Origin: Acidobacteriota bacterium
GTDB lineage: Bacteria > Acidobacteriota > UBA6911
Direction of reading: 5' to 3'
NCBI GenBank assembly: GCA_016933615.1
Contig: JAFGAO010000068.1
Location: 840 to 64,839 of the forward strand
Length of the DNA: 64,000 nucleotides
The position numbers and the translations under genes were made by a program. Positions 20,727 to 41,742 of this stretch are shown in pieces (position 1 is the stretch's first letter; each line of letters opens with the position of its first letter). The notes beneath the pieces are model-generated. The model did no database searches, was not told the DNA's origin, and saw nothing but the letters and a program-made list of their open reading frames with translations.

Positions 20727-20729
20727 TAA

Positions 20730-20817: not shown

Positions 20818-20834
20818 GAAGGAGAACCATCAAA

Positions 20835-21257: not shown

Positions 21258-21265
21258 GAAATACA

Positions 21266-22507: not shown

Positions 22508-22511
22508 AAAA

Positions 22512-22575: not shown

Positions 22576-22589
22576 TAAGGGCGAAACGT

Positions 22590-24689: not shown

Positions 24690-24755
24690 AGCAGTAAGCA
24701 GTTGGCAGTAATCTGATTCGGATTCGGGCTCAGATGAAATAGGGTATAAGTGACG

Positions 24756-24780
24756 GTAGGGGCGAACCTTGTGTTCGCCC
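24756..24780 (+). repeat. REP-like palindromic element, single copy
   Basis: GTAGGGGCGAACCTTGTGTTCGCCC, in the same orientation as the 8977 array. Confidence 0.9.
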
Positions 24781-24830
24781 TGGTAACGAAAAGTTGGCAG
24801 GAGGCGGGAGAAAGAAGCCAGGAGTCAGAA

Positions 24831-26057: not shown

Positions 26058-26075
26058 TACTACGGAGGTTTCATC

Positions 26076-26954: not shown

Positions 26955-26972
26955 AGCTTGGTGGATGCGAAG

Positions 26973-27052
26973 CCTTGGAGTGCGGCAGCTTGCTGCCGCC
27001 TTCGTTATATAGATTCCAAATCAAAGCGGCAGCTTGCTGCCGCACTCCAAGG
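26973..27052. repeat. composite inverted repeat (27-nt arms)
   Basis: CCTTGGAGTGCGGCAGCTTGCTGCCGC (26973-26999) and GCGGCAGCTTGCTGCCGCACTCCAAGG (27026-27052). Each arm also carries its own GCGGCAGC/GCTGCCGC mini-palindrome. The spacer is 26 nt. Confidence 0.85.
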
Positions 27053-27088
27053 ACTCTTCTTCGCATTACTATTTCAGGAGATGAAGGC

Positions 27089-28462: not shown

Positions 28463-28469
28463 ATGATTC

Positions 28470-28490
28470 ATTCGGCGACAGGCGCCGAAT
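28470..28490 (+). terminator. short GC hairpin after the PrpD-like gene (no U-tract)
   Basis: ATTCGGCG (28470-28477), loop ACAGG, CGCCGAAT (28483-28490). Confidence 0.25.
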
Positions 28491-28564
28491 TACCGGGAAG
28501 CCAGGAGCCGGGATAGAAACGAGCTTTTAATTTTCAATCTTCAATCAAGTGAGGAGGCAGGCCA

Positions 28565-29410
28565 ATGGGGGACGTTTTAAAAGGAAAAGTGGCATTCGTT
28601 ACCGGTGCGGCGGCGAAGCGGGGTATGGGAAGGGCCGTTGCCGTGCGGCTGGCCAAGGAAGGCGCCGACGTGATGGTGACCGATGTATTTGCATCGCCCA
28701 AAAGCGCCTGGGCCGGGGATGAAGGCTGGAAAGGGCTGGAAGATGTCGTAAAGGAAATTGAAGCGGTCGGTCGTAAAGCCGCTTCGGCCGTGGCAAACGT
28801 GGTCAACCTGGCCGAATGCGAAGCGGCCGTCAAGGACACGATCGACAAACTGGGCCGGATCGACATCCTGGTCAACTGCGCCGGAACACGCGGCCCCGTC
28901 GGCGTGAACATTGTCGACGGCGACGTAAAGGACTGGGAAGCGCTGTTTGACGTAAACGCAATCGGTACCATGGTCATATCCAAAGCCGTCGGCAAGGAAC
29001 TGATCCGCCAGAACCGGGGCGGCAAGATCGTGCACATCGCTTCGGCCGCGGGCAAGCTTCCCTGCCCCGGAAGCGCCGCCTATGCAGCCTCCAAATGGGC
29101 CGTTATCGGGATCACCCAGGCCCTGGCCATGGAACTGGCCCCCTACAAGATCAACGTCAACTCGATCAATCCCGGCTTCTTTGCCACCAACCTGCGCGAC
29201 GACGACGCGACCATGCACAGCAAGAAAAAAGGGATTACGGTGGAAGAGTTCCGGAAGGACGAATACAAGATGCTTTCTGACATGGTTCCCCTGAAGCGTA
29301 TGGGAACGGTTGACGACATCGCCAACCTTATCTTCTTCCTGGTCACAGACCAGTCGGAATACCTGACGGGTGTGGATATTAATATTACGGGCGGCACATT
29401 GATGCATTAA
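28565..29410 (+). CDS. short-chain dehydrogenase/reductase (SDR)
   Basis: 281 aa. 'VAFVTGAAAKRGMGRA' and the YxxxK site 'YAASKWA'. Confidence 0.9.
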   Translation: MGDVLKGKVAFVTGAAAKRGMGRAVAVRLAKEGADVMVTDVFASPKSAWAGDEGWKGLEDVVKEIEAVGRKAASAVANVVNLAECEAAVKDTIDKLGRIDILVNCAGTRGPVGVNIVDGDVKDWEALFDVNAIGTMVISKAVGKELIRQNRGGKIVHIASAAGKLPCPGSAAYAASKWAVIGITQALAMELAPYKINVNSINPGFFATNLRDDDATMHSKKKGITVEEFRKDEYKMLSDMVPLKRMGTVDDIANLIFFLVTDQSEYLTGVDINITGGTLMH

Positions 29411-29413
29411 AGA

Positions 29414-29466
29414 CGTTTCCCGTTCCCGGTTTCCCGTTTAAAAAAACGGCGCGATACGGGAAACTG
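29414..29466 (+). repeat. heptad-type inverted repeat element (g)
   Basis: GTTTCCC GTTCCCG GTTTCCC GTTTAAA (29415-29442). GTTTCCCGT (29429-29437) pairs with ACGGGAAAC (29456-29464). Confidence 0.85.
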
Positions 29467-29491
29467 CAACAGACCAACGGAGGATAGCAAA

Positions 29492-30313
29492 TTGTTACTG
29501 GAAAACAGGGTGGCGGTTATTACCGGCAGCGCCAACGGTATGGGCAAAGCCATGGCGCTGAAGTTTGCAAGTGAAGGCTGCAATATCGTCGTCAACGACA
29601 TCCAGATTGAGAAAGCTCAGGAAGTTGCCGAGACAATCAGGGCAGGCGGGCGGGATGCCATCGCGGTCAGAGCTGATGTCTCCAACAGTGAGGATATAAA
29701 ATCCCTGATACACCAGGCGGTTGAAAAATTCGGCCGTATCGAAATCCTGGTCACCAATGCCGGTGCCGCCGGCGGGGCCGATCTGGAGCATTCGGACGAG
29801 GAAGAGTGGGACAGGGTCCTGGCGCTGAACCTGAAAGGCGCCTTCATGCTGTGCAAGGCTGTCGTCCCTCACATGAAAAAACAGCGCTACGGCAAAATCA
29901 TCATGCTTTCCTCCATGGGAGCCGTCCGGCCCTCGATATCCGTGCTTGCCTACCATGCCGCCAAGTCCGGAATTATCGGACTGATGAAAAATCTCGCATT
30001 TGAACTGGCTCCCTTCGGCATTTATGTGAACTGCATCGTGCCGGGCCCGATTGAAACGCCGTTCTGGGATCCGCTTTCGGCGGGCATGTCGGAAGAAAAA
30101 AAACAGGCGTTTTTCGCCGCACTCGGCAGGAAGGAAGTGCCGCTGGGCCGGATGGGGCAACCGGAAGAGATTGCCGGACCGGCGCTGTTCTTTGCATCGG
30201 AACTGTCTTCCTACGTCACCGGCCAGGTGCTTTGCGTCGCGGGCGGCCAGCCGGGCATCACGCAGAGCATGACCTTTATCTCCTCCCCGGAGAGCGAGGG
30301 ATTCGGGAAATGA
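29492..30313 (+). CDS. short-chain dehydrogenase/reductase (FabG-like SDR)
   Basis: 273 aa. 'VAVITGSANGMGKA' and 'YHAAKSG'. TTG start 6 nt after GGAGGA. It is adjacent to a paralogous SDR. Confidence 0.9.
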   Translation: MLLENRVAVITGSANGMGKAMALKFASEGCNIVVNDIQIEKAQEVAETIRAGGRDAIAVRADVSNSEDIKSLIHQAVEKFGRIEILVTNAGAAGGADLEHSDEEEWDRVLALNLKGAFMLCKAVVPHMKKQRYGKIIMLSSMGAVRPSISVLAYHAAKSGIIGLMKNLAFELAPFGIYVNCIVPGPIETPFWDPLSAGMSEEKKQAFFAALGRKEVPLGRMGQPEEIAGPALFFASELSSYVTGQVLCVAGGQPGITQSMTFISSPESEGFGK

Positions 30314-30610
30314 TACGGGATGCCCTGATTGTGGCGGCGGCAAAGGCGGCGAGGGCGAAAGAGCTTTGGAGTGAAAAATTGAATCCCGGCCAAAACTACG
30401 AGGGGGTTGTTGTCGTCAATCCTTTACAGAAATGATAAAGCCTCCATTTGCCTTCATGATCAACAACAAATGCAGAAGCTTTCAGCATTTTTGCGGGTAA
30501 GGGCGGGCACCAACTTGTCCGCCGAAGCCTGCGGGGCGAAGGCGGAAGGTTCGCTTCTTCATTGCATCGGCGTTCGTTTGTTTGCCCATATTCAATAATT
30601 CAGGGGGAAA

Positions 30611-30697
30611 GGGCGAACACAAGGTTCAGGGCGAACACAGGGCGAACACAGGGCGAACACAGGGCGAACACAGGGCGAACACAAGGTTCGCCCCTAC
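30611..30697 (-). repeat. REP-like element with an internal 11-mer expansion
   Basis: GGGCGAACACAAGGTTCA, then GGGCGAACACA x4, then GGGCGAACACAAGGTTCGCCCCTAC. Orientation is opposite to the 8977 and 24756 copies. Confidence 0.9.
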
Positions 30698-30710
30698 TTA
30701 AAATCCGGAC

Positions 30711-31194
30711 CTACAGAATATCCTGTAGCCCCAGCTCCTCCAGCCTTTCCTTTCGGAATTTGCCGGTCTCGAAGTCGAAGCCCATGGCCTCGAGGTATTG
30801 GCGCTTGAGCCCCTCGAATTCGAGGGTCACGCTCCTGGTCGGCCCCGCCGTGAGCGGCGGGTTCCCGCGGGCCCTTTCCGGCAGAGTGAAATCGGAAAGC
30901 CGGAATCCTTCCCTGAAATTGAAAAGATGCAGCATGGTGCCGATGCGCTGCCCCGTCAGTTTTAAATTCTCTATGTCCAGGTCCCAGCCCTTGATCGCGC
31001 GCATCAGCTCGATCCAGCGGAAATTCAGGCCGTCGGCCGCGAATATGCACACGCCGGAGCAGTTCATGAGTTGCTGCCAGCCCGACATGACGGCCTGGTA
31101 CTTTCCCTTCCCTTCGGGATTGTACCTGGCGGACCGTCCCCTCGGTCAAATTCACAAACAGAATTCTGCCGATATATCCGAATCCAGCTTTCAT
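30711..31194 (-). pseudogene. aldehyde:ferredoxin oxidoreductase remnant (large internal deletion plus frameshift)
   Basis: ATG 31194 (AAGGAG 6 nt upstream) encodes the AOR N-terminus 'MKAGFGYIGRILFVNLTEGTV'. After ~25 codons the homology continues in another frame with the AOR C-terminus ('YNPEGKGKYQAVMSGWQQLMNCSGVCIF...GWDLDIENL...YLEAMGFDFETGKF'). About 450 codons are missing relative to the intact AOR at 5939. Confidence 0.75.
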
Positions 31195-31407
31195 TGGACG
31201 CTCCTTAATAGGAATTCCTCTCGAGGCGACCGGCTATAAAGGGCTGTTCCGGACCGTATTGTGTTATGAATCCGACATCATTATCGAAGGCGTGCTGCAT
31301 ACTGCGATGTGGAAACATTTTCATGCTCACGATCCGGCCATATTCCATGTAAGTTGCGTGCGGCATTGTAACATCGAACAGCTGGGACTTCCTGTTTATT
31401 CGACCGT

Positions 31408-31435: not shown

Positions 31436-31461
31436 ACCCTGACTGAATAGGAGACGCGATC

Positions 31462-33546
31462 ATGAGCGGGAAGGCGCAGTTTGAAATGCTGCTTTCACCT
31501 TTTAATATAGGAAAAATGCGGCTTAAGAACCGAATAATAAAGACCGCGGCAGAAATGAATACCCATGATCCCCATGATGCCCGGATGAACCAGAGAACCA
31601 TCGACTACGTGGAAGCAGTGGCCAGGGGCGGTGCAGGCATGGTTATTCTCTGGGATGCCTACCTTGATTATCCTTTGGGCGCAAGGATGCCCGATGGGTT
31701 GCGTATTGACGCTGACGAATACATTGCAGGCTTCAGCCAATTGGCCGATGCCGTCCACAAGCATGATTGCAGTTTATCGGTGCAGATGATGCATGCCGGA
31801 CCCTGGTGCCCGGCGTCGTTTTCCGGGCGCCCGCCAATCGCCGCTTCCGTGATGAGAGTCGAGGTGTATGAAAAACACTGGGGTGACGAAACCGTTGAGG
31901 CAGCCGTTGCCGATATTGAAGAAATTCAGGAAAAGTTCGTTCGTGCGGCGGAGCGCTACAAGAAGGCCGGGGTTGACCATCTGGAGATACATTGCGCTAC
32001 ACAGCACCTGGGCAATACCTTTATGTCCCGTCACTGGAACAAACGCAAGGACCGGTACGGTCCTCAAAGCCTGGAAAACCGGTCCCGGTTTATGGTTGAA
32101 ATCATCGAGGAAATTAAGAGACGTCTGGGGAAAGACTTCCCGATAGGGGTCCATTATAATGCCGCCGAATATGGGATAGATGACGGCATAACTCCCGCGG
32201 AGGGTCAGGAATTCGGGCGAATCTTCGAAGCTGCCGGCGCCGATAATCTTCATCCCAAAGCCGATGGTTTGGGTCCAATCTATAAATTAATGAACTGGCC
32301 CGATACGGTCTGCTATCCGGAGCCTCCGGACCCCTTGCCGGAAGGGCTTGATGGAAGCCGAAGCGGGGCCGGATTCTGGGTGCCGCTGGCCGCATCGGTC
32401 AAGAAGGCGGTTTCCATACCGGTTATTGCCACCGGCGGCATCCATGCCGAACTTGCAGAGAAAATCCTGCGGCAGGGTAAAGCGGATTTTATCGGCATGA
32501 CCCGACGCCTGTTGGCCGATCCGGCACTCCCCAACAAGATTGCCGCGGGAAGACTAAAGGACATTGCCCCATGCACACGCTGTCTTTCCTGCCTCGACAG
32601 AATACATTCGCACCCTATTCCGGGGAGATCATGCTGCCGCGTCAATGCTTCCCTGACAAGAGAGCGGGAATACGAAATCAAACCGGCAGTCAGGAAGAAA
32701 AAAGTGATGGTGGTCGGTGGCGGGCCGGCGGGAATGGAGGCGGCAAGGGTCGCGGCTTTAAGGGGGCATGAAGTGGCGCTGTATGAGAAAGAACCTCAAC
32801 TGGGAGGATCCGTACCCGTGGCGGCCACGATCAAGGGGCTTGAGATTGAAGATCTTCCTGCCCTGGTTCGCTATCTCAATACACAAATTACCAAGCTGGG
32901 CGTCAAGATCCATCTTGGCCAAGAGGTCAATAAGGCGATTGTCGAGCAGGTCAAGCCGGATGTGCTCATACTGGCGACGGGAGGATTGTATTCCGTTCCG
33001 GAAATACCCGGAATCGATTCGGGCAACGTGGTCAGGGCTGCCGACCTGAACCGCCGGCTGAAGGCTTGTTTGAGGTTCACAGGTCCCAGGCTGCTGACGT
33101 GGGCCGCGAAATTCTGGATGCCCATCGGTAAAAATGTTGTCATTATCGGCGGCGCCATACAGGCCCTCCAGCTGGCGGCATTTCTGGTTAAGCGCGGCAG
33201 AAAGGTCACAGTTGTCGACACAGCCGAGAAAATGGGGGATGGACTGGTTGAGTTCTATAAGATGCGACTGTTTTGGTGGTTGGAGCAAAAGGGAGTGCCC
33301 TTATTGTCCGGCGTAAAGTATGAGGAGATAACAGATAAGGGGCTGACGATCACTACCCGCGAAGGAGTGAAAACGCTCCTGGCGGCAGATGCCGTAATAC
33401 CTGCTTTGCCTATGGCGCCGGACACTGAGTTCTTCAAAAACCTGAAGGGGACAGCCCCTGAAATCTATCAGATCGGCGACTGTGGAAACTCTGCCCTGAT
33501 AATAGATGCTATCGGGGACGGTTCCCGAATTGGCCGCGCCATATAA
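31462..33546 (+). CDS. OYE-family NADH:flavin oxidoreductase with [4Fe-4S] and FAD/NAD(P) domains (paralog of 22590..24689)
   Basis: 694 aa with the same architecture: 'KNRIIKTAAE', 'VQMMHAG', 'CTRCLSCLDR...CC', 'KKVMVVGGGPAGMEAA', 'NVVIIGGAIQALQLAAFL'. Confidence 0.9.
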   Translation: MSGKAQFEMLLSPFNIGKMRLKNRIIKTAAEMNTHDPHDARMNQRTIDYVEAVARGGAGMVILWDAYLDYPLGARMPDGLRIDADEYIAGFSQLADAVHKHDCSLSVQMMHAGPWCPASFSGRPPIAASVMRVEVYEKHWGDETVEAAVADIEEIQEKFVRAAERYKKAGVDHLEIHCATQHLGNTFMSRHWNKRKDRYGPQSLENRSRFMVEIIEEIKRRLGKDFPIGVHYNAAEYGIDDGITPAEGQEFGRIFEAAGADNLHPKADGLGPIYKLMNWPDTVCYPEPPDPLPEGLDGSRSGAGFWVPLAASVKKAVSIPVIATGGIHAELAEKILRQGKADFIGMTRRLLADPALPNKIAAGRLKDIAPCTRCLSCLDRIHSHPIPGRSCCRVNASLTREREYEIKPAVRKKKVMVVGGGPAGMEAARVAALRGHEVALYEKEPQLGGSVPVAATIKGLEIEDLPALVRYLNTQITKLGVKIHLGQEVNKAIVEQVKPDVLILATGGLYSVPEIPGIDSGNVVRAADLNRRLKACLRFTGPRLLTWAAKFWMPIGKNVVIIGGAIQALQLAAFLVKRGRKVTVVDTAEKMGDGLVEFYKMRLFWWLEQKGVPLLSGVKYEEITDKGLTITTREGVKTLLAADAVIPALPMAPDTEFFKNLKGTAPEIYQIGDCGNSALIIDAIGDGSRIGRAI

Positions 33547-33599
33547 GTAATGGAACAGATTATATCCGGACAGGAACATTTTGGAACAGAGAGGCAACT

Positions 33600-33992
33600 A
33601 TGACCCGTGAAGAATTTGATGTTTACCTGGAAAAATTCAACGGCAGGGATTACGAGGGATTTCTTGATTACTTCGCCGACGAATTCGAAATGATCCATGT
33701 CGGCGGTTCGTTTAAAACCCGGGAATCGGTAATGAAGTTCTATAATTTCCTTCATGCCTATATTAAGGAAAGCGTGATTGTGGATCGTTTTGTTTCCGAT
33801 GAACATACGGTCGCGCTTGAAGCCAGGGTGCAGATTCAGGGAGTGAAGGAATTGTCCCCCGAGACAGTGGCCGCCTCGGACTACCCGAAGCTCAAGCCGC
33901 TTGCGGTCGGACAGACAGCCGTGATTCCGCAGTTCATTCATTATCATCTGGAGAAGGGGAAATTCGTAAAAGTCGTTTGTGCGGAACTTTAA
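33600..33992 (+). CDS. SnoaL/NTF2-like fold protein
   Basis: 130 aa. 'FDVYLEKFNGRDYEGFLDYFADEFEMIH' matches the pattern of SnoaL-like polyketide cyclase / ketosteroid-isomerase-like proteins. Confidence 0.7.
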   Translation: MTREEFDVYLEKFNGRDYEGFLDYFADEFEMIHVGGSFKTRESVMKFYNFLHAYIKESVIVDRFVSDEHTVALEARVQIQGVKELSPETVAASDYPKLKPLAVGQTAVIPQFIHYHLEKGKFVKVVCAEL

Positions 33993-34152
33993 AAGGGCGG
34001 CTTGAAAAGAGTCGCCCATAGAGTCATCTTCAAACAGGTGGCGGGGCAAAAAATAATTCCGGCCGGCTTCATACGCCCGCGGAAAAACTCCGCGGGAATT
34101 GCGGCTCCCTATGCGGTATGCTTATGTCGTGACATTATAAAAGGAGTTTCCA

Positions 34153-34614
34153 ATGCCGGATTCAACAGACAAACCCAAAGCCGTGTTCTGTACCAACACT
34201 CAATTGCCGCTCGGCGTCCACGATTTTGAAGCCGACGGCGACGGGCCCGCGAAGGCGCACGCACCGGATCCCCTTCACAGGGTCATCTACATGGACGACC
34301 GCGTCGTCCCGGGCTCCTTTTACGTCGAAGCCGTGTGGGTAAAAGGTTCCGTGCCCAAGGTTCACCCCGTGCACCGGCACGATCACGACGAGATCCTCGG
34401 CTTCGTGGGAAGCGATATGGAGAACCCGGACGATCTCGGGGCGGAAATCGATATCGTCATCGACGGCAAAAAGACGACGATCACCAAAACGTGCTTTATC
34501 CACGTGCCTGCCGGTGTGGAGCACGGCGGGCTCTGTTTCAGGAAAATCGACAGGCCGGTATTTCAGATCGCCATGTTGAGGCAGGATATATTTGAAAGCG
34601 TCCCCCCCACGTAG
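34153..34614 (+). CDS. cupin-fold protein, function unknown
   Basis: 153 aa. Cupin motif 1 'HRHDHDEILGFVG' (HxHxxxE) and motif 2 'HVPAGVEHG' (PxGxxH). AAGGAG lies 6 nt upstream of the ATG. Confidence 0.6.
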   Translation: MPDSTDKPKAVFCTNTQLPLGVHDFEADGDGPAKAHAPDPLHRVIYMDDRVVPGSFYVEAVWVKGSVPKVHPVHRHDHDEILGFVGSDMENPDDLGAEIDIVIDGKKTTITKTCFIHVPAGVEHGGLCFRKIDRPVFQIAMLRQDIFESVPPT

Positions 34615-34645
34615 GAATTTCCTGCCGCGGGCCGGAAAAATTATC

Positions 34646-35581
34646 ATGACAGGCGCCGGGAAAAAGGCTGCGCCGCCAAGGGCGGTTATTACAAACATCC
34701 AGGGCTTTTCCATCCATGACGGGCCGGGAATACGCACGGTGGTTTTTTTCAAGGGGTGCCCGCTCGCCTGCCGCTGGTGTGCCAACCCGGAATGCCTGTC
34801 CCCCGAGCCGCAGATCGGGTTCATTGAGACTCTCTGCACGGATTGCGGGGAGTGCTCCCAAATCTGCGCCGAGGGCGCCATCCGCGGCGGCAAAGGCGTT
34901 CACCGGATCGACTATTCTCGCTGCACCTCCTGCGGCGATTGCGTCGACGGCTGCGGCTACGGGGCGCTCGTGCGCTACGGCGAATCCATGACGGTTCCCG
35001 ACGTCTGGGATATCGTCCGGCGCGACAAGATGTTTTACGACAGTTCGGGCGGGGGCGTCACGGTCTCGGGGGGGGAGCCTTTGCTCCGGGCGGGATTCGT
35101 CCGGGAGCTGTTTGAGCTGTGCAGACAGGAGCGGATCGATACCTGCATCGAGACGTGCGGATTGGCCGCCCGGGATGCGCTTGTTGAGGTTATTCCCGTC
35201 ACGGATCACTTCCTGTTCGATCTGAAGCTCATCGATCCAAAGCTGCACAAAACATACACCGGACAATCCAGCGGCATCATTCTCGAAAATGCCGCATTTC
35301 TCATGGAGCGGGGCGTCGACATCGTATTCCGGCAGCCGCTGGTTCCCGCAATAACCGATACTGTTGAAAATATGGAAGCGACCGCGGCCTTTCTCAAAGG
35401 ATCCGGCAAAAAGGACGTAAGCCTGGAGTTGATGCCCTACCACCGGATGGGGCGGGGCAAATACCGGGCGCTCGATATGCGGTATCTCATGGACGGGACC
35501 GAAGCAGCGGGGAACGAAAGAGCGGAGGCCGTCAAAAAAGCCTACATCGATCTCGGCGTACGTTGTACGATTTCAAGGTAA
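34646..35581 (+). CDS. glycyl-radical enzyme activating enzyme (radical SAM, with two ferredoxin-like cluster motifs)
   Basis: 'GFSIHDGPGIRTVVFFKGCPLACRWCANPE' (CX3CX2C), 'CTDCGECSQIC' and 'CTSCGDCVDGC', plus the SAM motif 'SGGEPLL'. Start taken at ATG 34646. Confidence 0.9.
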   Translation: MTGAGKKAAPPRAVITNIQGFSIHDGPGIRTVVFFKGCPLACRWCANPECLSPEPQIGFIETLCTDCGECSQICAEGAIRGGKGVHRIDYSRCTSCGDCVDGCGYGALVRYGESMTVPDVWDIVRRDKMFYDSSGGGVTVSGGEPLLRAGFVRELFELCRQERIDTCIETCGLAARDALVEVIPVTDHFLFDLKLIDPKLHKTYTGQSSGIILENAAFLMERGVDIVFRQPLVPAITDTVENMEATAAFLKGSGKKDVSLELMPYHRMGRGKYRALDMRYLMDGTEAAGNERAEAVKKAYIDLGVRCTISR

Positions 35582-35601
35582 CAGCATCTTCGGAGTCTGA
35601 A

Positions 35602-38046
35602 ATGGTCGAAGTGAACATGCAGCTTCTTGACAGGATCGACGACCTGAAACTCGGCGAACGGGTCCTGCAGTGGAAAAAGGCCGTGAAAGAGGCCGGGTGG
35701 AAACTTTTCGCAGAGAGGGAGAAATGGACCGTCCAGTCCTGGCGCGAAACCGAAGGGCTCGACATCCAGCTGCGGCGCGCCCTCCTATTCAAGAAGGTGG
35801 TGGAGAATGTCGAAATCCGGATTCAGGACTACGACAGGATCGCGGGCCGCCTGACGCCCGCCGTTATCGGATGCATGACCTCGATCGACGTCTGCGGCGA
35901 CTACATCCCGGGCATCTGGCAGGACTCCGACAAGCTGAGGATCACGATGGACGCCGACGTCGGCATGGATCCCGAAAGCATTGAAATTCTTCGCGCCGGC
36001 GCGCGGCTGTTTCGCGGGAAAACGGCGCCCGAGATGACCTACAAGGCCTGGGAGGCGGCCGACGGCGGCTGGATCAGGGATGCCGAAGCGGCCAAGCTCA
36101 AGGATCCGACCCTGGACACCGGCATATTCGGACAGGTCACTTCCGTACTGATGTGGAAGAAGATTTTGGAGAAAGGCCTGAAAGGCTTCATCCGGGAGGC
36201 CCGGGAGCATATCGACGCGTTTGTCGCAAACCGGGAAAGCGACATCGACCGGCTTTACTTCTGGAAATCCTCGATCATCGCATGCGAAGCGGTCATCGAT
36301 CACGCCCGCCGATACGCCGCCGCGGCCAGGGAAATGGCTGAAAAGGAAACGTGGCCGGAACGCAGGGCCGAGCTGCTCGAAATGGCGGCCGCCTGCGGCC
36401 ATGTGCCCGAGAATCCGGCCCGGACCTTTCACGAGGCGCTGCAATCGATGGCCATCGTGGGCGTGTGCAAGAACTACGAGCACCCGATGCACAACAATCC
36501 CCAGTGGGGGCGAGGCGACCAGTACCTGTATCCCTACTTCATCCGGGACATCGACGAGGGAACAATCACGCTCGAAAAGGCTTCGGACCTGCTCGCGGAG
36601 CTCATCGGCCGCTGGGGAACCCAAACCTTCGTCTCCTCCGAGAGCTCCATGGAATCGCACCAGATCAATTTCGGAATCAACAACGCCATGATCGGCGGTG
36701 TGAATGCGGCGGGCGAGGACGGTTCCAACGAATTGAGCTACCTGTTCCTGCACGTCGTCGGGCTGCTGCAGCTGTCGTCCCCGACCCTGGGCCTGCGCTG
36801 GAACGGCAAAACGCCCTCCTGGATTATGAACAAGGCCATCCGCACGAACATGGCCACCAAGGGCGGCATTCCCCTTTTCGAAAACGACGAAGTCGTCATC
36901 GAGCATTTCCTCAAGGACGGAATCCCGATCGAGGAGGCCGCGGAGTGGTGCGGGCTGGGCTGCGTGTATCCCTGCCTTCCCTCAAGGGCGGAGCATTACG
37001 GCGCCGAGGGCATCGCCGCCTGCAATCTGGCCGCGATGCTTCATCTGGTGCTGCACAACGGCGCAGACGTAAACGACAAACAAACGGGGCTGCAGACGGG
37101 CGACCCGAGAGAGTTCAAGAGCTTCGAAGATCTCTACGGCGCCCTGATGCGGCAGCACAGGTTCATCACGCACCGTATTTTCTGGCTTGCGTCCATCGCC
37201 CGCAGGGAACAGCCCAAGCACATGAGGCTCCCGTTTTTGTCGACCGTGGGCGTTCCGAGCTGCATGGAACTGGGGCAGGATCTCCTGATTCCGGACCCGG
37301 AATCCTGCATGTTCGGCATTTCCGACAGGGCCATCATCGACGTCGCCGATTCTCTCATGGCCTTGAAGAAGCTGGTGTTTGATGAAAAGAAGCTGACCAT
37401 GGGGGAACTTCTCGAGGCGATCGACGGCAACTTCGAAGGCCGGGAGGGGGAACGGATCCGGCGCCTGTGCCTGGCGCAACCCAAGTTCGGCAACGATATC
37501 GACGAGGTGGACCTGCTGGCCAAAAGAATCGGCGAAGACTCCGAGCGCATCATCCGCAGCTACGACAACTCCCCGTTCCGCAATTACATGATCGCGCGGG
37601 AAGGGCTCGCCTGGCACTATTTCGGCGGGCTGGGCGTGGGTGCCCTGCCCAACGGGAGAAAGGCGTTCGAGCCGCTCAACGACGGCTCCATCTCCCCGAT
37701 GAGAGGCGTGGACAGGGCGGGGCCGACCGCCGTGCTGCGTTCGGCGCTCAAGGCCGGGTTCAGGGAATCCCACGCCTCGGTGCTGAACCAGAAGTTCTCC
37801 GCGTCCATCCTGGGGAGCCGAGAAAGCATCGACAAGCTCGCGGCCTACACCAACGCCTTCATGGCAAACGGCGGCTCCCACATCCAGTACAACATGGTGG
37901 ACACGAACGAACTGCGGGACGCGAAAATCCACCCCGAAAACCATCGCGACCTGATCGTCCGCATCGGGGGTTTCAGCGCCTATTTCACGCAGCTTTCCGC
38001 CGACATCCAGGACGACGTCATCAACCGGAGCGAGCACAACCTTTAG
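35602..38046 (+). CDS. glycyl-radical enzyme, PFL2/dehydratase-like clade, unknown reaction
   Basis: Glycyl radical motif 'DLIVRIGGFSAYF' (Gly codon 37969-37971). Cys loop 'WCGLGCVYPC' (Cys codon 36961-36963). 'GPTAVLRS' and 'KFGNDIDEVD' blocks. Start ATG 35602, 6 nt after GGAG; the track start at 35563 overlaps the activase. Confidence 0.9.
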   Translation: MVEVNMQLLDRIDDLKLGERVLQWKKAVKEAGWKLFAEREKWTVQSWRETEGLDIQLRRALLFKKVVENVEIRIQDYDRIAGRLTPAVIGCMTSIDVCGDYIPGIWQDSDKLRITMDADVGMDPESIEILRAGARLFRGKTAPEMTYKAWEAADGGWIRDAEAAKLKDPTLDTGIFGQVTSVLMWKKILEKGLKGFIREAREHIDAFVANRESDIDRLYFWKSSIIACEAVIDHARRYAAAAREMAEKETWPERRAELLEMAAACGHVPENPARTFHEALQSMAIVGVCKNYEHPMHNNPQWGRGDQYLYPYFIRDIDEGTITLEKASDLLAELIGRWGTQTFVSSESSMESHQINFGINNAMIGGVNAAGEDGSNELSYLFLHVVGLLQLSSPTLGLRWNGKTPSWIMNKAIRTNMATKGGIPLFENDEVVIEHFLKDGIPIEEAAEWCGLGCVYPCLPSRAEHYGAEGIAACNLAAMLHLVLHNGADVNDKQTGLQTGDPREFKSFEDLYGALMRQHRFITHRIFWLASIARREQPKHMRLPFLSTVGVPSCMELGQDLLIPDPESCMFGISDRAIIDVADSLMALKKLVFDEKKLTMGELLEAIDGNFEGREGERIRRLCLAQPKFGNDIDEVDLLAKRIGEDSERIIRSYDNSPFRNYMIAREGLAWHYFGGLGVGALPNGRKAFEPLNDGSISPMRGVDRAGPTAVLRSALKAGFRESHASVLNQKFSASILGSRESIDKLAAYTNAFMANGGSHIQYNMVDTNELRDAKIHPENHRDLIVRIGGFSAYFTQLSADIQDDVINRSEHNL

Positions 38047-38090
38047 TATGATTACTTGAAAATTATTCGAATAACGGGGGAGATGTTTAT

Positions 38091-38873
38091 ATGACGGGGG
38101 GATTTCAGGGGAAAACGGCGCTGGTTACGGGAGCCGCTTCCGGAATTGGAAGGGCGGCCGCGCGGCTTTTTGCCAAGGAAGGGGCAAACGTCATTGTTTC
38201 CACAGGCACCAACATCCGGGGCGGAGAAGAAACCGTCCGGATGATAAAAGAAAACGGAGGGGAGGCCGCATTCGTCAAGTGTGACGTCACCCGTGCGGAA
38301 GATATAGAAGCGATGGTCGCGCGTGCGCTCGAACTCTACGGAGGTCTCCACTACGCATTCAACAACGCCGGCATTGGCCCCGACGGAGATCGTATGCCCA
38401 TCGTAGCGGTCGCCGAATGCCCGGTGGAAATCTGGGACAAAACGCTGGACATCAACCTGAAAGGCATATTCCTGTGCATGAAATACGAAATCCGGCAAAT
38501 GCTGAAGCAGGGCTTCGGCGCCATCGTCAATAATTCATCCATCGGAGCCTACAAAGCGGTCCCGGGATTCGCGGCCTACGACGCGAGCAAAAGCGGCATG
38601 ATCGGCCTTACAAAAGCGGCCGCGCTGGAATATGCAACCTCCGGAATCCGGATCAACGTCCTGTGCCCGGGTCCGACCGACGGCACGCAGCTGATGGAAA
38701 AACTGACCCGGTTCCATCCGGAAGAGCGGGATCATATCAACAGCACGGTTCCCATGAAGCGTTTGGCGTCTCCGGAGGAAATGGCCCAGGTCGCCGTCTG
38801 GCTGTGTTCGGAATCCGCGTCGTTCGTCACCGGATGCCAGATCCCGGTCGACGGCGGGCTTACAGCGACCTAA
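38091..38873 (+). CDS. short-chain dehydrogenase/reductase (SDR)
   Basis: 260 aa. 'TALVTGAASGIGRA', 'NNAG' and 'YDASKSG'. Confidence 0.9.
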   Translation: MTGGFQGKTALVTGAASGIGRAAARLFAKEGANVIVSTGTNIRGGEETVRMIKENGGEAAFVKCDVTRAEDIEAMVARALELYGGLHYAFNNAGIGPDGDRMPIVAVAECPVEIWDKTLDINLKGIFLCMKYEIRQMLKQGFGAIVNNSSIGAYKAVPGFAAYDASKSGMIGLTKAAALEYATSGIRINVLCPGPTDGTQLMEKLTRFHPEERDHINSTVPMKRLASPEEMAQVAVWLCSESASFVTGCQIPVDGGLTAT

Positions 38874-38883
38874 CTCCATATTT

Positions 38884-41304
38884 ATGCGCAGCAGTCCTGA
38901 CAGTGACAGGGGAGGATACGGAAGCATCCTCAAAGGCACCCTGGTACTGGATCTCGCGGACGAAAAGGGCAGCTACTGTTCGAGACTCCTTGCGGACCTG
39001 GGAGCCGAGGTCATTAAAATTGAACCGCCCGGGGGAGACCCATCCAGAAATCTGGGGCCTTTCTATCGTAAAGAAGCGGGCGGCGAGCCTGTCAGTCTTT
39101 CTTTCTTCTACAACAACCTGAACAAGAAAAGCATCTGCCTGGACCTCCGGGCGGCGGAGGGAAGACGTTTCTTCAAAAGGCTGGCGCAAAGGGCCGACGT
39201 TCTGGTGGACACCTTCCCGCCGGGCTACTTAGACAGTCTGAAGCTTGGCTCCGAATCGCTCCGCGGCGAAAATCCCGGCTTAATTCACCTTTCGATCACG
39301 GCTTTCGGGCACAGCGGACCGAAATCGGCCTGCCGCGCATCCGACAGCGCCGTTTCCGCCTATGGGGGCCAGACATACGTTTGCAGCAACGGGTCGGGCA
39401 AACCCTCGAAGTTGTTCGGCATGCAATCCTGGTACGCGGCATCGCTCTTCGGCGCCGTCGCCGTCATGCTCCGGCTGCGGCAGCGGAAACGAACCGGGCG
39501 CGGGATTTTCATCGACCTCTCCGCCCAGGAAGCCGTCGTCTCCACACTGGACCATGTGCTGATCGATTATTTTTCAGACCGTCGAATCGCCCACAGGCGG
39601 GATGCATCGACTCGTGACAGCCGCTTCCAGGTTGTTCCCTGCAAAGACGGTTTCCTCCTCCTTACGATCCTGGAAACCTGGGATACGCTGATCGAACTTA
39701 TCGATTCGGAAAACGGAGCCAGGAATTTCCCGGATCCGAGGTGGAGAGATCCGGATTACCGCCTGAAACACTTCGGCGATATGCTCAAAGTTATAAAAGA
39801 GTGGGCCTCGCGCCACACAAAACGGGAGCTGTTCGAAATCGGCCAGGCAATGCGCTTCCCCTGGGCTCCCGTCGCTTCAGCCCGGGAAGTTCTTGAAAGC
39901 CCGCAGCTGCGCTCCCGCGGTTTCTTTGTCGAAAGCCGTGTTTCGGGGGAAAAAGCGATCCTTCCCGGCACCCCCTACAGGTTCAATTCCTGGAAACCCA
40001 CGACTCCAGTGCCCGCCCCACGCCCTGGGGAACACAGGACCGAGGTACTGAAAAAACTGGACACCCATATAAAAATAAATAATTTAAAACATGAAGTATT
40101 TGATTATAAATATTCATATTTAAATAATAATATTCTAAAAGGAATCAGGGTGCTGGATCTGTCCAGGATGCTTTCCGGGCCGTACGCCACCCGGATCCTG
40201 GCTGATTTCGGAGCGGAGGTGATCAAGGTCCAGACCGGGAAAACCGCCCGGGGTGCCGAGCGCGACGACAGCGCCTATTTCAGCGCGTGGAACCGGAACA
40301 AGCGCAGCATCCGGCTGGACCTGGATTCAGAGGAGGCAGGAGAGGTTTTTCTGAAGCTGGTTGCTGGAAGCGACATTCTCGTGGAAAACTATTCCCCCCG
40401 TGTCATGGCCAATTGGGGATTGCCCCCGGATCGAATGAAAGACGCGAACCCTTCCCTGATTATGCTGAGCATCTCGGCGATGGGGCAAACGGGCCCCTGG
40501 AAAGACTTCGTCGGATACGCCCCTACATTCCATGCCCTTTCGGGATTGATGTCCGCATCGTCGTCTGTACCCGGCTCTCCCGCAACCATCGGACATGCGT
40601 TCGGGGACGTAATGGCCGGACTCTATGGCGCCTTTTCTCTGATGGCGGCTCTGGAATTCCGGGATAACACAGGACAGGGCCTGCATATCGATCTTTCCGG
40701 ATACGAAGCCCTGTGTTCCCTGCTCGGCCCGGCCCTGATGCATAACTCGCTGGCCCGTGATGCGGGCGAACGGAGCCGATGGTGTGAAGAATACTGCGAT
40801 ACGGTACCGGACGGGTGCTATCCGTGCCGGGGAACCGATCGCTGGTGCACCCTGACGGTAAAAAACGATACCGAGTGGCGGACATTCTGCAGCGTTCTCG
40901 GCCGGCCGGAACTGGAATCGGACCGCTTCGCCACCCCGGAGGGAAGGAGAAAACACGAACAGGCGCTCGATGACATTATTAAGAACTGGACGGAGGCCCG
41001 TTCTGCGGAATCCGCGGTCGGGGCTATTCAGAAGGCAGGGCTTGCGGCCGGTATCGTTCAGGACGCAAGGGAGATTTCAAGGGATAGGCATTTAACCGCC
41101 CGCAAATTTTTCATTTCCCTGAAACACCCGCAACTCGGCGATACGGCCGCCGACAGATCCGCCCTGTGGCCGTGGGACTGCGCCACGGACGGATGGCGGG
41201 CCGCGCCGCTTCAGGGAGAGGCCGACCGCGATATATTCGTAAAGCTTCTCGGAATGCCGGAAGAAACCTTCAGGGATTTCCTGAGGCGGGGGGTCATCGG
41301 ATAA
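38884..41304 (+). CDS. tandem fusion of two family-III (CaiB/BaiF) CoA-transferase domains
   Basis: 806 aa. Domain 1: 'LVLDLADEKGSYCSRLLADLGAEVIKIEPPGGDP...GEHRTEVLKKL'. AT-rich linker at 40066-40143. Domain 2: 'IRVLDLSRMLSGPYATRILADFGAEVIKVQ...LRRGVIG'. Confidence 0.85.
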   Translation: MRSSPDSDRGGYGSILKGTLVLDLADEKGSYCSRLLADLGAEVIKIEPPGGDPSRNLGPFYRKEAGGEPVSLSFFYNNLNKKSICLDLRAAEGRRFFKRLAQRADVLVDTFPPGYLDSLKLGSESLRGENPGLIHLSITAFGHSGPKSACRASDSAVSAYGGQTYVCSNGSGKPSKLFGMQSWYAASLFGAVAVMLRLRQRKRTGRGIFIDLSAQEAVVSTLDHVLIDYFSDRRIAHRRDASTRDSRFQVVPCKDGFLLLTILETWDTLIELIDSENGARNFPDPRWRDPDYRLKHFGDMLKVIKEWASRHTKRELFEIGQAMRFPWAPVASAREVLESPQLRSRGFFVESRVSGEKAILPGTPYRFNSWKPTTPVPAPRPGEHRTEVLKKLDTHIKINNLKHEVFDYKYSYLNNNILKGIRVLDLSRMLSGPYATRILADFGAEVIKVQTGKTARGAERDDSAYFSAWNRNKRSIRLDLDSEEAGEVFLKLVAGSDILVENYSPRVMANWGLPPDRMKDANPSLIMLSISAMGQTGPWKDFVGYAPTFHALSGLMSASSSVPGSPATIGHAFGDVMAGLYGAFSLMAALEFRDNTGQGLHIDLSGYEALCSLLGPALMHNSLARDAGERSRWCEEYCDTVPDGCYPCRGTDRWCTLTVKNDTEWRTFCSVLGRPELESDRFATPEGRRKHEQALDDIIKNWTEARSAESAVGAIQKAGLAAGIVQDAREISRDRHLTARKFFISLKHPQLGDTAADRSALWPWDCATDGWRAAPLQGEADRDIFVKLLGMPEETFRDFLRRGVIG

Positions 41305-41316
41305 AGTATCACCAAA

Positions 41317-41742
41317 TTATTTTTTGAGGGCTGCGACGGCGTGGTAGCAGGATTTGCGCTTGTATTCCCGGTCGAACAGGAGCGGATAGTTCGTACGGCC
41401 CCTGACGGGGAAATAATTTTTCCATGACTCGCCGTCGCCCGTTCCCCAGAAAGTGACGCGCCGGATCGCGCTACGGTATTTGAGAAACAGCTTGAAGAAC
41501 TCGACATAACGATCGGCGAGCTGTTTTTCGACCCCAGGAGGCATACCGTTCACATAGGGATCGAGTTCCTCGGCATACTGAGCCCTGTCGGATACATCGG
41601 CTCCCGTTTGCTGTTGCGCCCGTGGCAGTACGTCGACATCCATCTCGGTTATATGAACCTGCATTCCGGTCTCTGCAAAGGTCGCGATGCTTTTCTCAAA
41701 CTCCCCGATGTCCGGATAATCCAATCCGACATGCCCCTGCAT
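41317..41742 (-). pseudogene. GH10 (endo-1,4-beta-xylanase family) C-terminal fragment
   Basis: 141 aa starting at the 'GMQGH' block, with the nucleophile motif 'ITEMDVDV' (cf. ITELD). The N-terminal half, which carries the acid/base Glu, is absent. Only ~50 nt separate it from the upstream purF-like stop. Confidence 0.6.

Follow-up and report, generated by a model that had tools for sequence, protein, structure and literature searches.

The 814-aa glycyl-radical enzyme (GRE) encoded in the window, by which we mean the whole 64,000-nucleotide stretch of DNA analysed, falls outside every described GRE class, and the functional unit to which it belongs is a three-gene cassette comprising a cupin, a radical-SAM activase and the GRE itself. 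The complete explanation that we favor, in which this cassette represents a new GRE class, uses Glu667 in its mechanism and catalyzes a lyase, dehydratase or isomerase reaction on an oxygenated acid, has in our estimation an even chance of being right.

Three units within an apparent operon

The original prediction described six co-directional genes as one module, and the six genes, their spacing, the glycyl motif and the GLGCVYPC loop were all confirmed in position, with six ORFs on the + strand separated by gaps of 160, 31, 20, 44 and 10 nt in order (Table 1). DNA comparison revealed that these genes are three units rather than one module. The cassette appears in blastn as one block with 76-81% nucleotide identity to six Acidobacteriota loci (L004, L007-L010 and L027), and the edges of this block lie at 34110-34174 and at 38045-38048, the latter being the GRE stop codon. 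The OYE-SnoaL genes upstream are a separate unit that accompanies the cassette in Desulfatiglandales too: they are 77-86% identical at the nucleotide level to the Desulfatiglandales/Desulfobacteraceae loci L037 and L038, and they adjoin GRE and cupin genes in four deltaproteobacterial loci (L037, L038, L041 and L063; 72-87% amino acid identity).

Table 1. Positions of the three units, their genes and the key GRE residues in the window
Feature	Position	Strand	Basis
OYE-SnoaL unit, two genes	31446-33993	+	blastn, Pfam
OYE-type FMN/Fe-S/FAD oxidoreductase	31462-33546	+	Pfam
SnoaL_2 protein	33600-33992	+	Pfam, 4e-9
Cupin-activase-GRE cassette, three genes	34110-38046	+	blastn to six Acidobacteriota loci
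Single-domain metal cupin, 153 aa, cassette accessory protein	34153-34614	+	AF2 model, Foldseek
Radical-SAM GRE-activating enzyme	34646-35581	+	TIGR02494
GRE, 814 aa, uncharacterised 'GCVYP' family	35602-38046	+	PF02901 + PF01228
Cys454 (thiyl), Val455, Tyr456 codons, TGC GTG TAT (Cys454 36961-36963, Tyr456 36967-36969)	36961-36969	+	Alignment to CxE
Glu667 codon, invariant Glu with a predicted active-site orientation, candidate relocated base	37600-37602	+	Sequence alignment
Gly790 codon, glycyl radical site (RIG-G-FSAYF)	37969-37971	+	Gly_radical domain
SDR + BbsEF-type fused CoA-transferase unit	38046-41305	+	DNA comparison with sister MAG
SDR oxidoreductase, resident backbone	38091-38873	+	Pfam; homology to L071
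Fused BbsE/BbsF-type family-III CoA-transferase, resident backbone	38884-41304	+	9fn0 matches

The SDR-CoA-transferase pair downstream is resident chromosome and not part of the GRE cassette. The window SDR is 95% identical in amino acids to that of L071, where no GRE adjoins the SDR and homology begins at 38046, and the CoA-transferase genes of L071, L073 and L074 have the same downstream neighbors, again without a GRE. The sister MAG Zod_Metabat.95 carries SDR, CoA-transferase, GH10, GATase and amidohydrolase genes on one contig without a GRE and its GRE cassette on a different contig, and the homology of the former contig to the window begins at the GRE stop codon. The GRE seems to have taken the place of the region upstream of the SDR gene, so that the SDR would now lie within reach of read-through from the GRE; given this replacement and the gaps of 44 and 10 nt, the GRE, SDR and CoA-transferase genes are probably co-transcribed in this genome.

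Thus, the six-gene operon is only apparent, and results from the cassette being flanked in this MAG by the OYE-SnoaL unit and the resident pair. Comparison of 48 non-redundant loci carrying the GRE, window included, found the arrangement in this MAG alone: the full SnoaL-cupin-activase-GRE-SDR-CoA-transferase set does not recur, a CoA-transferase adjoins the GRE only in the window itself, and cupin-activase-GRE is the sole widely conserved part. The activase adjoins the GRE in 38 of the 48 loci. Other partner genes are variable: L002 carries the GRE alone, the cupin is not linked to the GRE in L068-L070, in L038 and L063 a VOC protein separates the GRE from the cupin, and in five or more other loci the activase is directly preceded by an SDR. 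The SDRs near the GRE outside the window are only 29-37% identical to that of the window. As predicted, families of microcompartment shell proteins are absent from the annotated ORFs.

A glycyl-radical enzyme outside the described classes

The GRE matches the PFL-like (1.6e-128) and Gly_radical (8e-24) domains of Pfam and has more than 120 homologues at 75-88% identity, almost all of 814 aa. In NCBIfam it reached neither any equivalog cut-off nor that of the PFL2/glycerol-dehydratase subfamily, and its best match among solved GREs reached 381 bits, compared with 811 for uncharacterised clusters, in keeping with the proposal of an orphan GRE with a non-CxE loop. The glycyl motif RIGGFSAYF is normal, with Gly790 as the radical residue. 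In phmmer alignments, Cys454 falls on the catalytic Cys of HypD, HpsG, MasD, 9rco and GDH, and Tyr456 falls on the CxE Glu of HypD, HpsG, GDH and 9rco, which upholds the placement of Tyr where eliminases have Glu; in alignments to solved GREs no Glu-bearing loop elsewhere competes for the thiyl position. The GCVYP loop is kept in 114 of 120 homologues and in every genome locus of this family that is full-length. Non-Glu loops are frequent among uncharacterised GREs, and none of the classes in a 2026 review has Tyr here.

The top-scoring matches, by sequence and by HMM, are eliminases and isomerases (CutC, IseG/IslA, glycerol dehydratase, HpsG, HypD and YbiW/PflD), with 381 bits for CutC, 358 for IseG, 350 for GDH and 443 for the HpsG model. 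These enzymes share with the window GRE a single-subunit PFL-like barrel, Gly and Cys loops in register and Pro at C+3, and their activases are of the same subfamily and likewise carry two additional Fe-S motifs. However, all of them are CxE enzymes whereas the GCVYP family has CxY, and the window GRE scores below every family cut-off and has an invariant Glu where this strand carries Tyr640 in GDH and Val680 in IslA. Since the GRE, as aligned, has neither the Cys-Cys pair of pyruvate formate-lyase nor the CxE of eliminases and isomerases, nor the fumarate-binding Arg and small subunits of X-succinate synthases, nor the PhdB residues, it belongs to no known class.

The chance that it is an ordinary pyruvate formate-lyase, as annotated in JGI records and in the UBA6911 Acidobacteria genomic study, is practically negligible. 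Homologues do carry automatic names such as 'formate C-acetyltransferase', and the UBA6911 paper lists EC 2.3.1.54 together with an activase, but Cys454 is followed by Val-Tyr instead of forming a vicinal Cys-Cys, and with 79.5 bits against TIGR01255 (cut-off 994) and only 68 bits against 1h16 this identity was rejected at the sequence level.

An uncharacterised sister 'GCVWP' family from rumen/gut Bacillota and Desulfatiglans (53-58% identity) shares the REGL[AS]WHY strand with its Glu and an Arg at C+8, and the operon in L052 includes a homologue of the cassette cupin. In this family Trp replaces Tyr, a second GRE is often close by, and the operon is fixed, with two PrpD-family genes, a MatC/CitMHS carrier, a 3-hydroxyacyl-CoA-dehydrogenase-family gene and a LysR regulator.

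A candidate relocated base

Glu667 is invariant in the GCVYP family and retained in CVW and CVQ relatives. It aligns with Tyr640 of GDH and with Val678 of IseG, the equivalent of IslA Val680 (IseG Arg676 aligns to Ala665), while Ser689, Tyr691 and Val693 of P0212, a probable PhdB-cluster representative, align to Ala665, Glu667 and Leu669. This match to active-site positions of GDH, IslA and PhdB suggests that Glu667 is a relocated base; the AlphaFold model of the GRE had a pLDDT of 47.6. In the mechanism that we propose, the activase would place the radical on Gly790, from which it would move to Cys454, and Glu667, on a barrel strand, would take the acid-base role instead of a Cys-loop Glu. 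Tyr456 (Trp or Gln in sister families) may serve as hydrogen-bond donor and pocket wall.

The activase and the cupin

The activase scored 320 bits (1e-95) against TIGR02494, for which the cut-off is 174. Its ORF opens with a TTG at 34592, and the ATG at 34646 suits the homologue lengths of 302-311 aa. CPLACRWC (CX3CX2C) at residue 38 is accompanied by two ferredoxin-like CX2CX2CX3C motifs.

The cupin had no significant match in Pfam or NCBIfam (Cupin_2 reached 18.5 bits, with the cut-off at 27.2). The call of a cupin is nevertheless right, because its AlphaFold model (core pLDDT 80-91) matches the small metal cupins KdgF and MarH with a Foldseek probability of 1.0, and the sequence has HxH...E and PxGxxH motifs. 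The best Foldseek matches were KdgF 5fq0 (E 7e-6), the epimerase MarH 6j4b and the non-heme Fe epimerase/lyase 7eqk; KdgF/MarH-type cupins share the single-domain fold and the His/Glu metal site, but the window protein is only 12-20% identical to them and has some 40 extra N-terminal residues modelled at low confidence, and none of these cupins is known as a GRE partner. The family is narrow (181 matches at 69-96% identity). Within 3 kb of the GRE it occurs in 18 of 48 loci, it is linked to the GRE in 14 of the 33 loci whose flanks extend 3 kb or more in each direction, and across 17 loci cupin identity correlates with GRE identity (r = 0.91). The cupin beside the activase, put forward as an unfamiliar neighborhood, is thus real, recurrent and undescribed.

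Candidate reactions

The recurrent partners, namely the cupin as a KdgF/MarH-like isomerase or epimerase, SDRs, the ene-reductase with its SnoaL isomerase and the VOC epimerase-like protein, are all enzymes of carbonyl/enolate chemistry. We therefore regard as most likely a radical reaction of the lyase, dehydratase or isomerase type that acts on an oxygenated carboxylic acid and makes or consumes a ketone or enone. The cupin would in that case interconvert the tautomer or epimer.

The original prediction likened the GRE and its CoA-transferase neighbor to fumarate addition, in which an X-succinate-synthase-like GRE would make or cleave a substituted succinate for processing by a BbsEF-type CoA-transferase and the SDR. 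The CoA-transferase part of this likeness holds: in this 806-aa protein with two CoA_transf_3 domains, the N half best matches subunit A (9fn0_A, 193 bits; next best 149) and the C half subunit B (9fn0_B, 189 bits; next best 168) of benzylsuccinate CoA-transferase, by which it really does look BbsEF-like, and the fused architecture is widespread (2500 matches). Its position directly downstream of the GRE and their probable co-transcription point the same way, as do the top PDB match of the OYE-type protein (2-naphthoyl-CoA reductase 6qkg, 264 bits), the surrounding island with a PrpD-family protein, four more CoA-transferases and a B12 mutase, and the PrpD genes and dicarboxylate carrier beside the sister GRE family, as the known substrates of the PrpD family are substituted succinates (PMC12290011). 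The GRE also resembles X-succinate synthases (BSS, MASS) in a Cys loop without Glu and with Pro at C+3; the benzylsuccinate synthase loop given in the original prediction, LCMAPG, contains a small error, since Ser is the residue of BssA at this site (PMC7079210) and the loop of the related MasD reads ACMSP.

However, the CoA-transferase adjacency is specific to this genome, so the resemblance to fumarate addition rests on that juxtaposition, and the sister MAG has the SDR-CoA-transferase pair without a GRE, the break falling at the GRE stop codon. The Arg at C+15 of MasD, which is Arg508 in benzylsuccinate synthase and binds fumarate in that structure, aligns to Ala468 of the GRE. The intergenic gaps hold no ORF fitting a small subunit, as had been predicted, and hence no beta or gamma subunit; MasD (300 bits) and TutD (252 bits) match more weakly than the eliminases; BbsG-type and BbsAB-type genes are absent among the annotated ORFs; and enoyl-CoA hydratase genes occur only some 30 kb upstream. 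Fumarate addition is, in our judgment, very unlikely.

A PhdB-type radical decarboxylase, whose polar C+2 residue (Tyr here, Gln in PhdB) would bind the carboxylate of an acid with an activated methylene, for example an arylacetate or a beta,gamma-unsaturated acid, seems rather unlikely. PhdB, a toluene-forming phenylacetate decarboxylase reportedly of Acidobacterial origin, is likewise a single-subunit enzyme of uncultured anaerobic Acidobacteria, and its CxQ loop has an essential non-Glu polar residue, Gln484, of which the variants Q484E, Q484A and Q484L are inactive. In addition, the closest partial relative of the window GRE, P0122 (61% identity), has GCVQP, O-demethylase-like genes and feruloyl/tannase esterases lie near the GRE in several loci, and an unsaturated product could be reduced by the ene-reductase. 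Against this, the window GRE and the probable PhdB-cluster representative are only about 33% identical, PhdB Trp495, Ser689 and Tyr691 are not kept (Gly467 and Glu667 occupy the places of Trp495 and Tyr691), and scores against the NCBIfam decarboxylase models are far under their cut-offs. PhdB has no known cupin partner, and what the known decarboxylases produce is a metabolic dead end, whereas the cassette is accompanied by isomerase and reductase partners.

Some of the gene context speaks against the preferred reaction: the partner genes vary, the tannase/feruloyl esterases, found near the GRE in eight loci, hint at phenolic acids, and the two PrpD genes with their MatC/CitMHS transporter next to the sister family hint at di- or tricarboxylates. 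Either of the last two contexts would fit a decarboxylase or C-C lyase as well.

The GRE family is strongly conserved and uncharacterised, and so far it has been found in uncultured anaerobes only, at 70-88% identity and with GCVYP in every case in about 48 loci of Acidobacteriota, Desulfobacterota and Spirochaetota. As every characterised eliminase and isomerase keeps CxE and altering that Glu abolishes activity, a relocated base in this GRE would be without precedent.

The glycyl radical enzyme and its family

The 814-aa glycyl radical enzyme (GRE) is a member of the GRE superfamily in its PFL-like division. It combines a PFL-like barrel (PF02901, 1.6e-128) with a C-terminal glycyl radical domain (PF01228, 8e-24), carries RIGGFSAYF as its version of the glycyl motif RVxG[FWY], in which Gly790 stores the radical, and has Cys454 at the position where HypD, HpsG, MasD, GDH, CutC and IseG have their catalytic Cys. 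A cognate activase gene ends 20 nt 5' of the GRE gene, and its product scores 320 bits against TIGR02494 (cut-off 174) and contains CPLACRWC (CX3CX2C) along with two ferredoxin-like motifs. An aminoacyl radical enzyme (AARE), in which Ala, Ser or Thr stores the radical, was rejected, as the radical site here is a Gly. The original prediction had placed a Tyr at the position of the CxE Glu, and phmmer alignments with HypD, HpsG, MasD, 9rco and glycerol dehydratase bore this out for Tyr456. The competing Glu-bearing thiyl loop, named beforehand as grounds for abandoning the prediction, did not appear, as phmmer set Cys454 on the catalytic Cys.

The database search retrieved, as a 100% match, a hypothetical protein from an Acidobacteria MAG, and more than 120 database clusters, nearly all of 814 aa, share 75-88% identity with the GRE. 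The loop GLGCVYPC is present in 114 of 120 homologous clusters, and RIGGFSAYF in 117 of the 120. When one genome per species was scanned, 60 GRE loci came up, all from MAGs or single-cell genomes and none from isolates in the genome collection scanned. About 48 non-redundant loci, at 70-88% identity, read GCVYP in all full-length copies (the GCVYP family), and their hosts are Acidobacteriota, Desulfatiglans and Desulfobacteraceae, and Spirochaetes and Leptospirales. Thirteen loci at 50-58% identity, from rumen/gut Bacillota and as Desulfatiglans paralogues, read GRGCVWPALPQ (the sister CVW family). Among 1.8 billion cluster representatives, the next-nearest clusters are 38-48% identical, together with one 61% fragment that reads GCVQP, and the loops of these nearest other clusters include GCAIV, GCERI, GCSQ and GCLPP; the contigs of two of them (P0121 and P0123) are short, and their gene context was uninformative. 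Glu occupies C+2, the second residue past the catalytic Cys, in only 48 of the 118 full-length representatives nearest the GRE, and Tyr is found there in four other clusters too. The CxY loop is less surprising because non-Glu loops are common in uncharacterised GRE sequence space.

Comparison with characterised classes

None of the NCBIfam equivalog or subfamily cut-offs was reached by the GRE. The best solved relatives are eliminases (CutC, 381 bits; IseG, 358; glycerol dehydratase, 350), with MasD (300), TutD (252) and PFL (68) below them. However, the GRE reads CVY where the 1,2-eliminases and isomerases have CxE, their Glu being aligned to Tyr456, and it falls under the cut-offs of the corresponding HMMs (TIGR01774, 453/678; HpsG, 443/1000; HypD, 378/1100; CutC, 359/1050). 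A June 2026 review that covers every characterised class contains none with CxY, shows CxE in each eliminase and isomerase, and points to whole GRE clades without any assigned function (PMC13450708). Similarly, the literature, that of 2025-2026 included, yielded no characterised CxY GRE and no GRE with a cupin or PrpD; a paper of 2026 about the anaerobic degradation of benzene proved unrelated.

PFL and 2-ketoacid formate-lyase were excluded because the GRE has no Cys-Cys pair and scores 79.5 bits against TIGR01255 (cut-off 994). Among the arylacetate decarboxylases (HPAD, IAD, AAD and PhdB), to none of which the GRE was assigned, HPAD and IAD were rejected on the loop (CxY, not CxE) and the profile scores (indole_decarb, 340 versus 1100; HPDL, 240 versus 1150), and HPAD also on the lack of a small subunit. 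PhdB has CxQ, with an essential Gln484 (PMC7079210). The cluster representative P0212 matches PhdB E132, C482, Q484, W495, S689, Y691, V693 and G815 at a fixed offset, but not H327, and is a probable representative of the PhdB cluster; the GRE is ~33% identical to it and has Gly467 and Glu667 at the positions of PhdB Trp495 and Tyr691, on which grounds PhdB membership was rejected. We consider it unlikely that the GRE is a decarboxylase.

The X-succinate synthases, which add fumarate to their substrates, differ from the GRE in several respects. In particular, MasD and TutD are less similar to it than the eliminases are, and the Arg at C+15 of MasD falls on Ala468, the nearest Arg of the GRE being Arg462 (C+8). 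In BSS structures, Arg508, 15 residues past the catalytic Cys, is the fumarate-binding residue. In addition, the beta/gamma Fe-S small subunits are absent beside the GRE. The statement in the original prediction that small subunits were lacking holds throughout the six-gene set, in which gaps are 10-160 nt and the only small ORFs rich in Cys overlap larger genes out of frame.

A strand glutamate as a possible relocated base

In phmmer alignments, Glu667 falls on glycerol dehydratase Tyr640, an active-site residue in that structure, and Ala665 and Glu667 are paired with IseG Arg676 and Val678 (IslA Arg678 and Val680; residue numbers in the IseG chain are 20 lower than those of the literature). 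A MAFFT alignment places PhdB-like Ser689, Tyr691 and Val693 on Ala665, Glu667 and Leu669. These glycerol dehydratase, IseG and PhdB residues line the active site in solved or modelled enzymes. A 135-sequence MAFFT alignment made to compare C+2 with position 667 was gapped at columns 665-667 and is unreliable there. Glu667 is invariant in the GCVYP family and is kept in the CVW and CVQ relatives within REGL[AS]WHY, from which we infer that, in this family, a strand Glu may go together with an aromatic or amide side chain at C+2. Glycerol dehydratase has the reverse arrangement, with Glu435 in the Cys loop and Tyr640 on the strand. An AlphaFold model of the GRE built from 14 sequences (75-88% identical) gave a meaningless all-helix fold (mean pLDDT 47.6) and was discarded.

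The cupin and other recurrent partners

The 153-aa product of the gene upstream of the activase had no significant profile match, Pfam Cupin_2 remaining under its cut-off. Its AlphaFold core (pLDDT 80-91) matches KdgF, MarH, TM1459 and other small metal cupins (Foldseek probability 1.0), and the metal motifs HPVHRHDHDE and PAGVEH (HxH..E and PxGxxH) are present. The modelled beta-helix fold and the His/Glu metal motif assign it to the cupin superfamily, in agreement with the earlier naming of the gene. A role as GRE small subunit found no support, since the protein has no Cys clusters, is enzyme-like with a metal site, and is unlinked to the GRE in some genomes. The cupin family is small (181 database matches), and cupin and GRE identities correlate (r = 0.91). 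Linkage is frequent, not obligatory: one locus (L002) has the GRE alone, and in L068-L070 the cupin sits with a PAS kinase, an esterase and GH3. Proteins of ~420 aa and ~154 aa with weak UGSC-family similarity are encoded directly 5' of the cupin in several loci (for example, L004 7219-8481, L007 6665-8443 and L047 14128-15369). No NCBIfam match passing its cut-off was obtained for the cupin, the UGSC-like protein (c8), the SnoaL, the PrpD-like proteins or the SDR.

Genes found near the GRE in 48 non-redundant GCVYP loci
Partner	Loci	Remarks
Activase	38/48	adjoining the GRE
Cupin	18/48	within 3 kb; 14/33 among loci flanked by 3 kb or more on each side
SDR	9/48	at least 5 lie directly 5' of the activase; no orthologues of the window SDR
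OYE-type reductase	8/48	orthologous to that of the window in 4
Tannase/feruloyl esterase	8/48	
SnoaL, window type	5/48	window included
SnoaL, second family	4/48	
Fused CoA-transferase	1/48	window only

Mosaic origin of the gene cluster

The original prediction described six co-directional genes as one module, and six same-strand ORFs are indeed found from 33600 to 41304, separated by 160, 31, 20, 44 and 10 nt. Besides the cupin, domain searches identified a SnoaL_2 protein, the GRE-activating radical-SAM enzyme, the GRE with its PFL-like and Gly_radical domains, an SDR protein, and a pair of family-III CoA-transferase domains within a product of 806 aa. An Rfam scan of the window gave no riboswitch match that would name a ligand. 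The module itself was drawn wrongly, since nucleotide comparison resolves three separate blocks.

Coordinates of features in the window
Feature	Position	Strand	Description
Left end	9-12527		MFS; nitronate-monooxygenase-like; family-I CoA-transferase alpha and beta; two enoyl-CoA hydratases; aldehyde:ferredoxin oxidoreductase; TRAP transporter DctP/DctM; another MFS
Island	12854-30313	+	large, co-directional; FAD_binding_2 flavoprotein, aldehyde dehydrogenase, one family-I and three family-III CoA-transferases, two SDRs, and the next four features
MutE	19260-20726	+	glutamate-mutase-like B12 pair
B12-binding	20835-21257	+	glutamate-mutase-like B12 pair
Second OYE/Fe-S/FAD reductase	22590-24689	+	
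PrpD-family protein	26975-28462	+	divergent
ORF	30562-31239	+	225 aa
Aldehyde:ferredoxin oxidoreductase remnant	~30714-31097	-	C-terminal part
OYE-SnoaL block	31446-33993		
Cassette block	34110-38046		cupin, activase, GRE
Cupin	34153-34614		
Activase	34646-35581		
GRE	35602-38046	+	
Cys454 codon	36961-36963		catalytic Cys
Tyr456 codon	36967-36969		C+2
Gly790 codon	37969-37971		radical site
Third block	38046-41305		SDR and CoA-transferase
Fused CoA-transferase	38884-41304		
Right edge	41304-41317		radical-SAM gene missing
GH10 xylanase fragment	41317-41742	-	141 aa, C-terminal
Large ORF	47968-51954		1328 aa, TPR-packed
Large ORF	52167-56075		1302 aa

The cassette forms a single homologous block among six Acidobacteriota loci, from ~40 nt before the cupin to the GRE stop codon. 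The OYE-SnoaL block to its left shares 77-86% nucleotide identity with two deltaproteobacterial loci (L037 and L038), and OYE-SnoaL lies beside GRE and cupin in these and in L041 and L063, usually with divergent transcription. Such blocks repeatedly contain an excisionase-family HTH gene and a nitroreductase, to which L041 adds transposases. Together, these observations suggest that OYE-SnoaL moved recently between phyla, the MAGs concerned being from Acidobacteria on one side and from Desulfatiglandales/Desulfobacteraceae on the other.

The third block matches contig JAFGTD010000215 (L071) of the sister MAG Zod_Metabat.95. This contig carries, in order, the 5' portion of an OYE gene, lying at its edge (94% amino acid identity to that of the window, on the opposite strand), a gene of 1135 aa, the SDR (95% amino acid identity) and CoA-transferase (69%), a radical-SAM gene, and GH10, GATase, amidohydrolase, Gate and SNF, the same genes as in the window from 41.3 kb on. 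The GRE of Zod_Metabat.95 (88% identity) is located on a separate contig (L007) with different flanks. In two loci from more distantly related genomes (L073 and L074), the genes of the left end of the window (MFS, NMO, two ECH, AOR) lie at most ~4 kb from the CoA-transferase, with two NuoF/NuoG-like genes between, which implies that the window would contain ~30 kb of extra DNA relative to these loci. The apparent six-gene operon is, on these comparisons, a mosaic assembled in this lineage, because the three blocks have separate homologies and the sister MAG splits the GRE from the SDR-CoA-transferase pair. A deletion or rearrangement has left its scar at the right edge of the cluster: a 302-aa radical-SAM gene 3' of the CoA-transferase in L071 and L073 is missing from the window, and the GH10 xylanase is a fragment. 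To the left of the OYE-SnoaL block, the aldehyde:ferredoxin oxidoreductase remnant was recognized by tblastn (33%/130 aa, E 2e-16) and by blastn to the L073 AOR; the 225-aa ORF there has no family match and is probably spurious.

The pairing of GRE and CoA-transferase had been read as a sign of fumarate-addition chemistry, and several observations do speak for that reading. At E < 1e-25, the N-terminal half of the CoA-transferase matches only 9fn0_A and the C-terminal half only 9fn0_B, which assigns it by sequence to the heteromeric BbsEF-type family-III enzymes. In addition, 2-naphthoyl-CoA reductase is the best match of the window OYE, many dicarboxylate and CoA-ester enzymes are encoded in the island, and the GRE, SDR and CoA-transferase are probably co-transcribed in the window MAG. 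However, while X-succinate synthases have a conserved link to genes that break down the succinate adduct by beta-oxidation, BbsEF-type CoA-transferase genes among them, a BbsEF-type gene adjoins the GRE in the window only, 1 of the 48 loci, and its linkage is a local acquisition rather than a property of the GRE family. The analogy is weak, and we regard fumarate-addition-type chemistry as very unlikely. BbsE-like/BbsF-like fusions of ~800 aa, named CaiB-like by JGI, are themselves widespread (2500 matches; for example, P0392-P0510) in Acidobacteria, Deltaproteobacteria, Spirochaetes and Syntrophorhabdaceae. The island, devoted to organic acids and CoA esters, looks like branched dicarboxylate catabolism.

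The sister CVW family and the proposed reaction

In rumen/gut Bacillota MAGs (L049-L053, L056, L060, L065 and L066), the CVW family has a fixed operon of LysR, GRE, a 3-hydroxyacyl-CoA-dehydrogenase-family gene, two very divergent PrpD-family genes and a MatC/CitMHS carrier, to which a cupin homologue is added in L052. The neighbourhood often includes another GRE, distinct from the first, with Asp or Gln-Glu in its loop (GCLDA, GCQEI) or with GCVDP. This operon appears to be a gut di-/tricarboxylate pathway that seemingly needs two radical enzymes.

For the GCVYP family, superfamily membership leads us to propose that the activase would install the radical on Gly790, from which it would pass to Cys454 for hydrogen abstraction. 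We tentatively favour the view that an oxygenated carboxylic acid then undergoes a step of the lyase, dehydratase or isomerase type, with Glu667 as the base, because the partners all perform carbonyl/enolate chemistry and the best matches are eliminases; this assignment is possible rather than probable, and a reaction outside the types considered here is about as likely. The cupin may then act as a tautomerase or epimerase, and the ene-reductase on an unsaturated product. DMSP-/betaine-type and phthalate-type substrates, considered from cupin and tannase-family contexts, were dropped, as nothing specific pointed to them.

A bolder reading is that the GCV[Y/W/Q]P clade with Glu667 represents a new reaction class, in which the catalytic acid/base would have left the Cys loop for a barrel strand, with chemistry new to single-subunit GREs and a dedicated cupin epimerase or tautomerase. 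For example, C-C bonds of substituted succinates or other di-/tricarboxylates could be formed, cleaved or rearranged. The sister PrpD/MatC operon, the BbsEF-type transferase in the window, and the VOC and cupin epimerase-like partners hint at it, and we nevertheless hold it to be improbable. If true, such a reaction would take place in abundant, uncultured anaerobes, both Acidobacteriota and sulfate reducers.

Implications

The GRE family is a new functional variant in a well-known superfamily with many uncharacterised clades. GREs perform some of the hardest anaerobic reactions, and this family stands out by its 70-88% identity across three phyla. The departure from CxE and the Glu on a neighbouring strand provide a concrete, testable structural hypothesis, and the compact cupin-activase-GRE cassette is a well-defined expression target. 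The striking link between GRE and CoA-transferase shows itself to be a recent genomic accident, a caution for pathway inference from gene neighbourhoods.

A genomic study of UBA6911 Acidobacteria took formate C-acetyltransferase and its activase, which it lists for these genomes, to indicate that pyruvate is converted to formate (bioRxiv 10.1101/2021.04.09.439258). That entry probably refers to this kind of GRE gene, and if this family is meant, it is probably wrong, as judged from the missing Cys-Cys pair. PFL labels on such GREs, in automatic annotation and probably in at least one study, would distort metabolic reconstructions of anaerobic Acidobacteriota. The value of the finding lies mainly in an experimental target and in a correction to PFL annotations.
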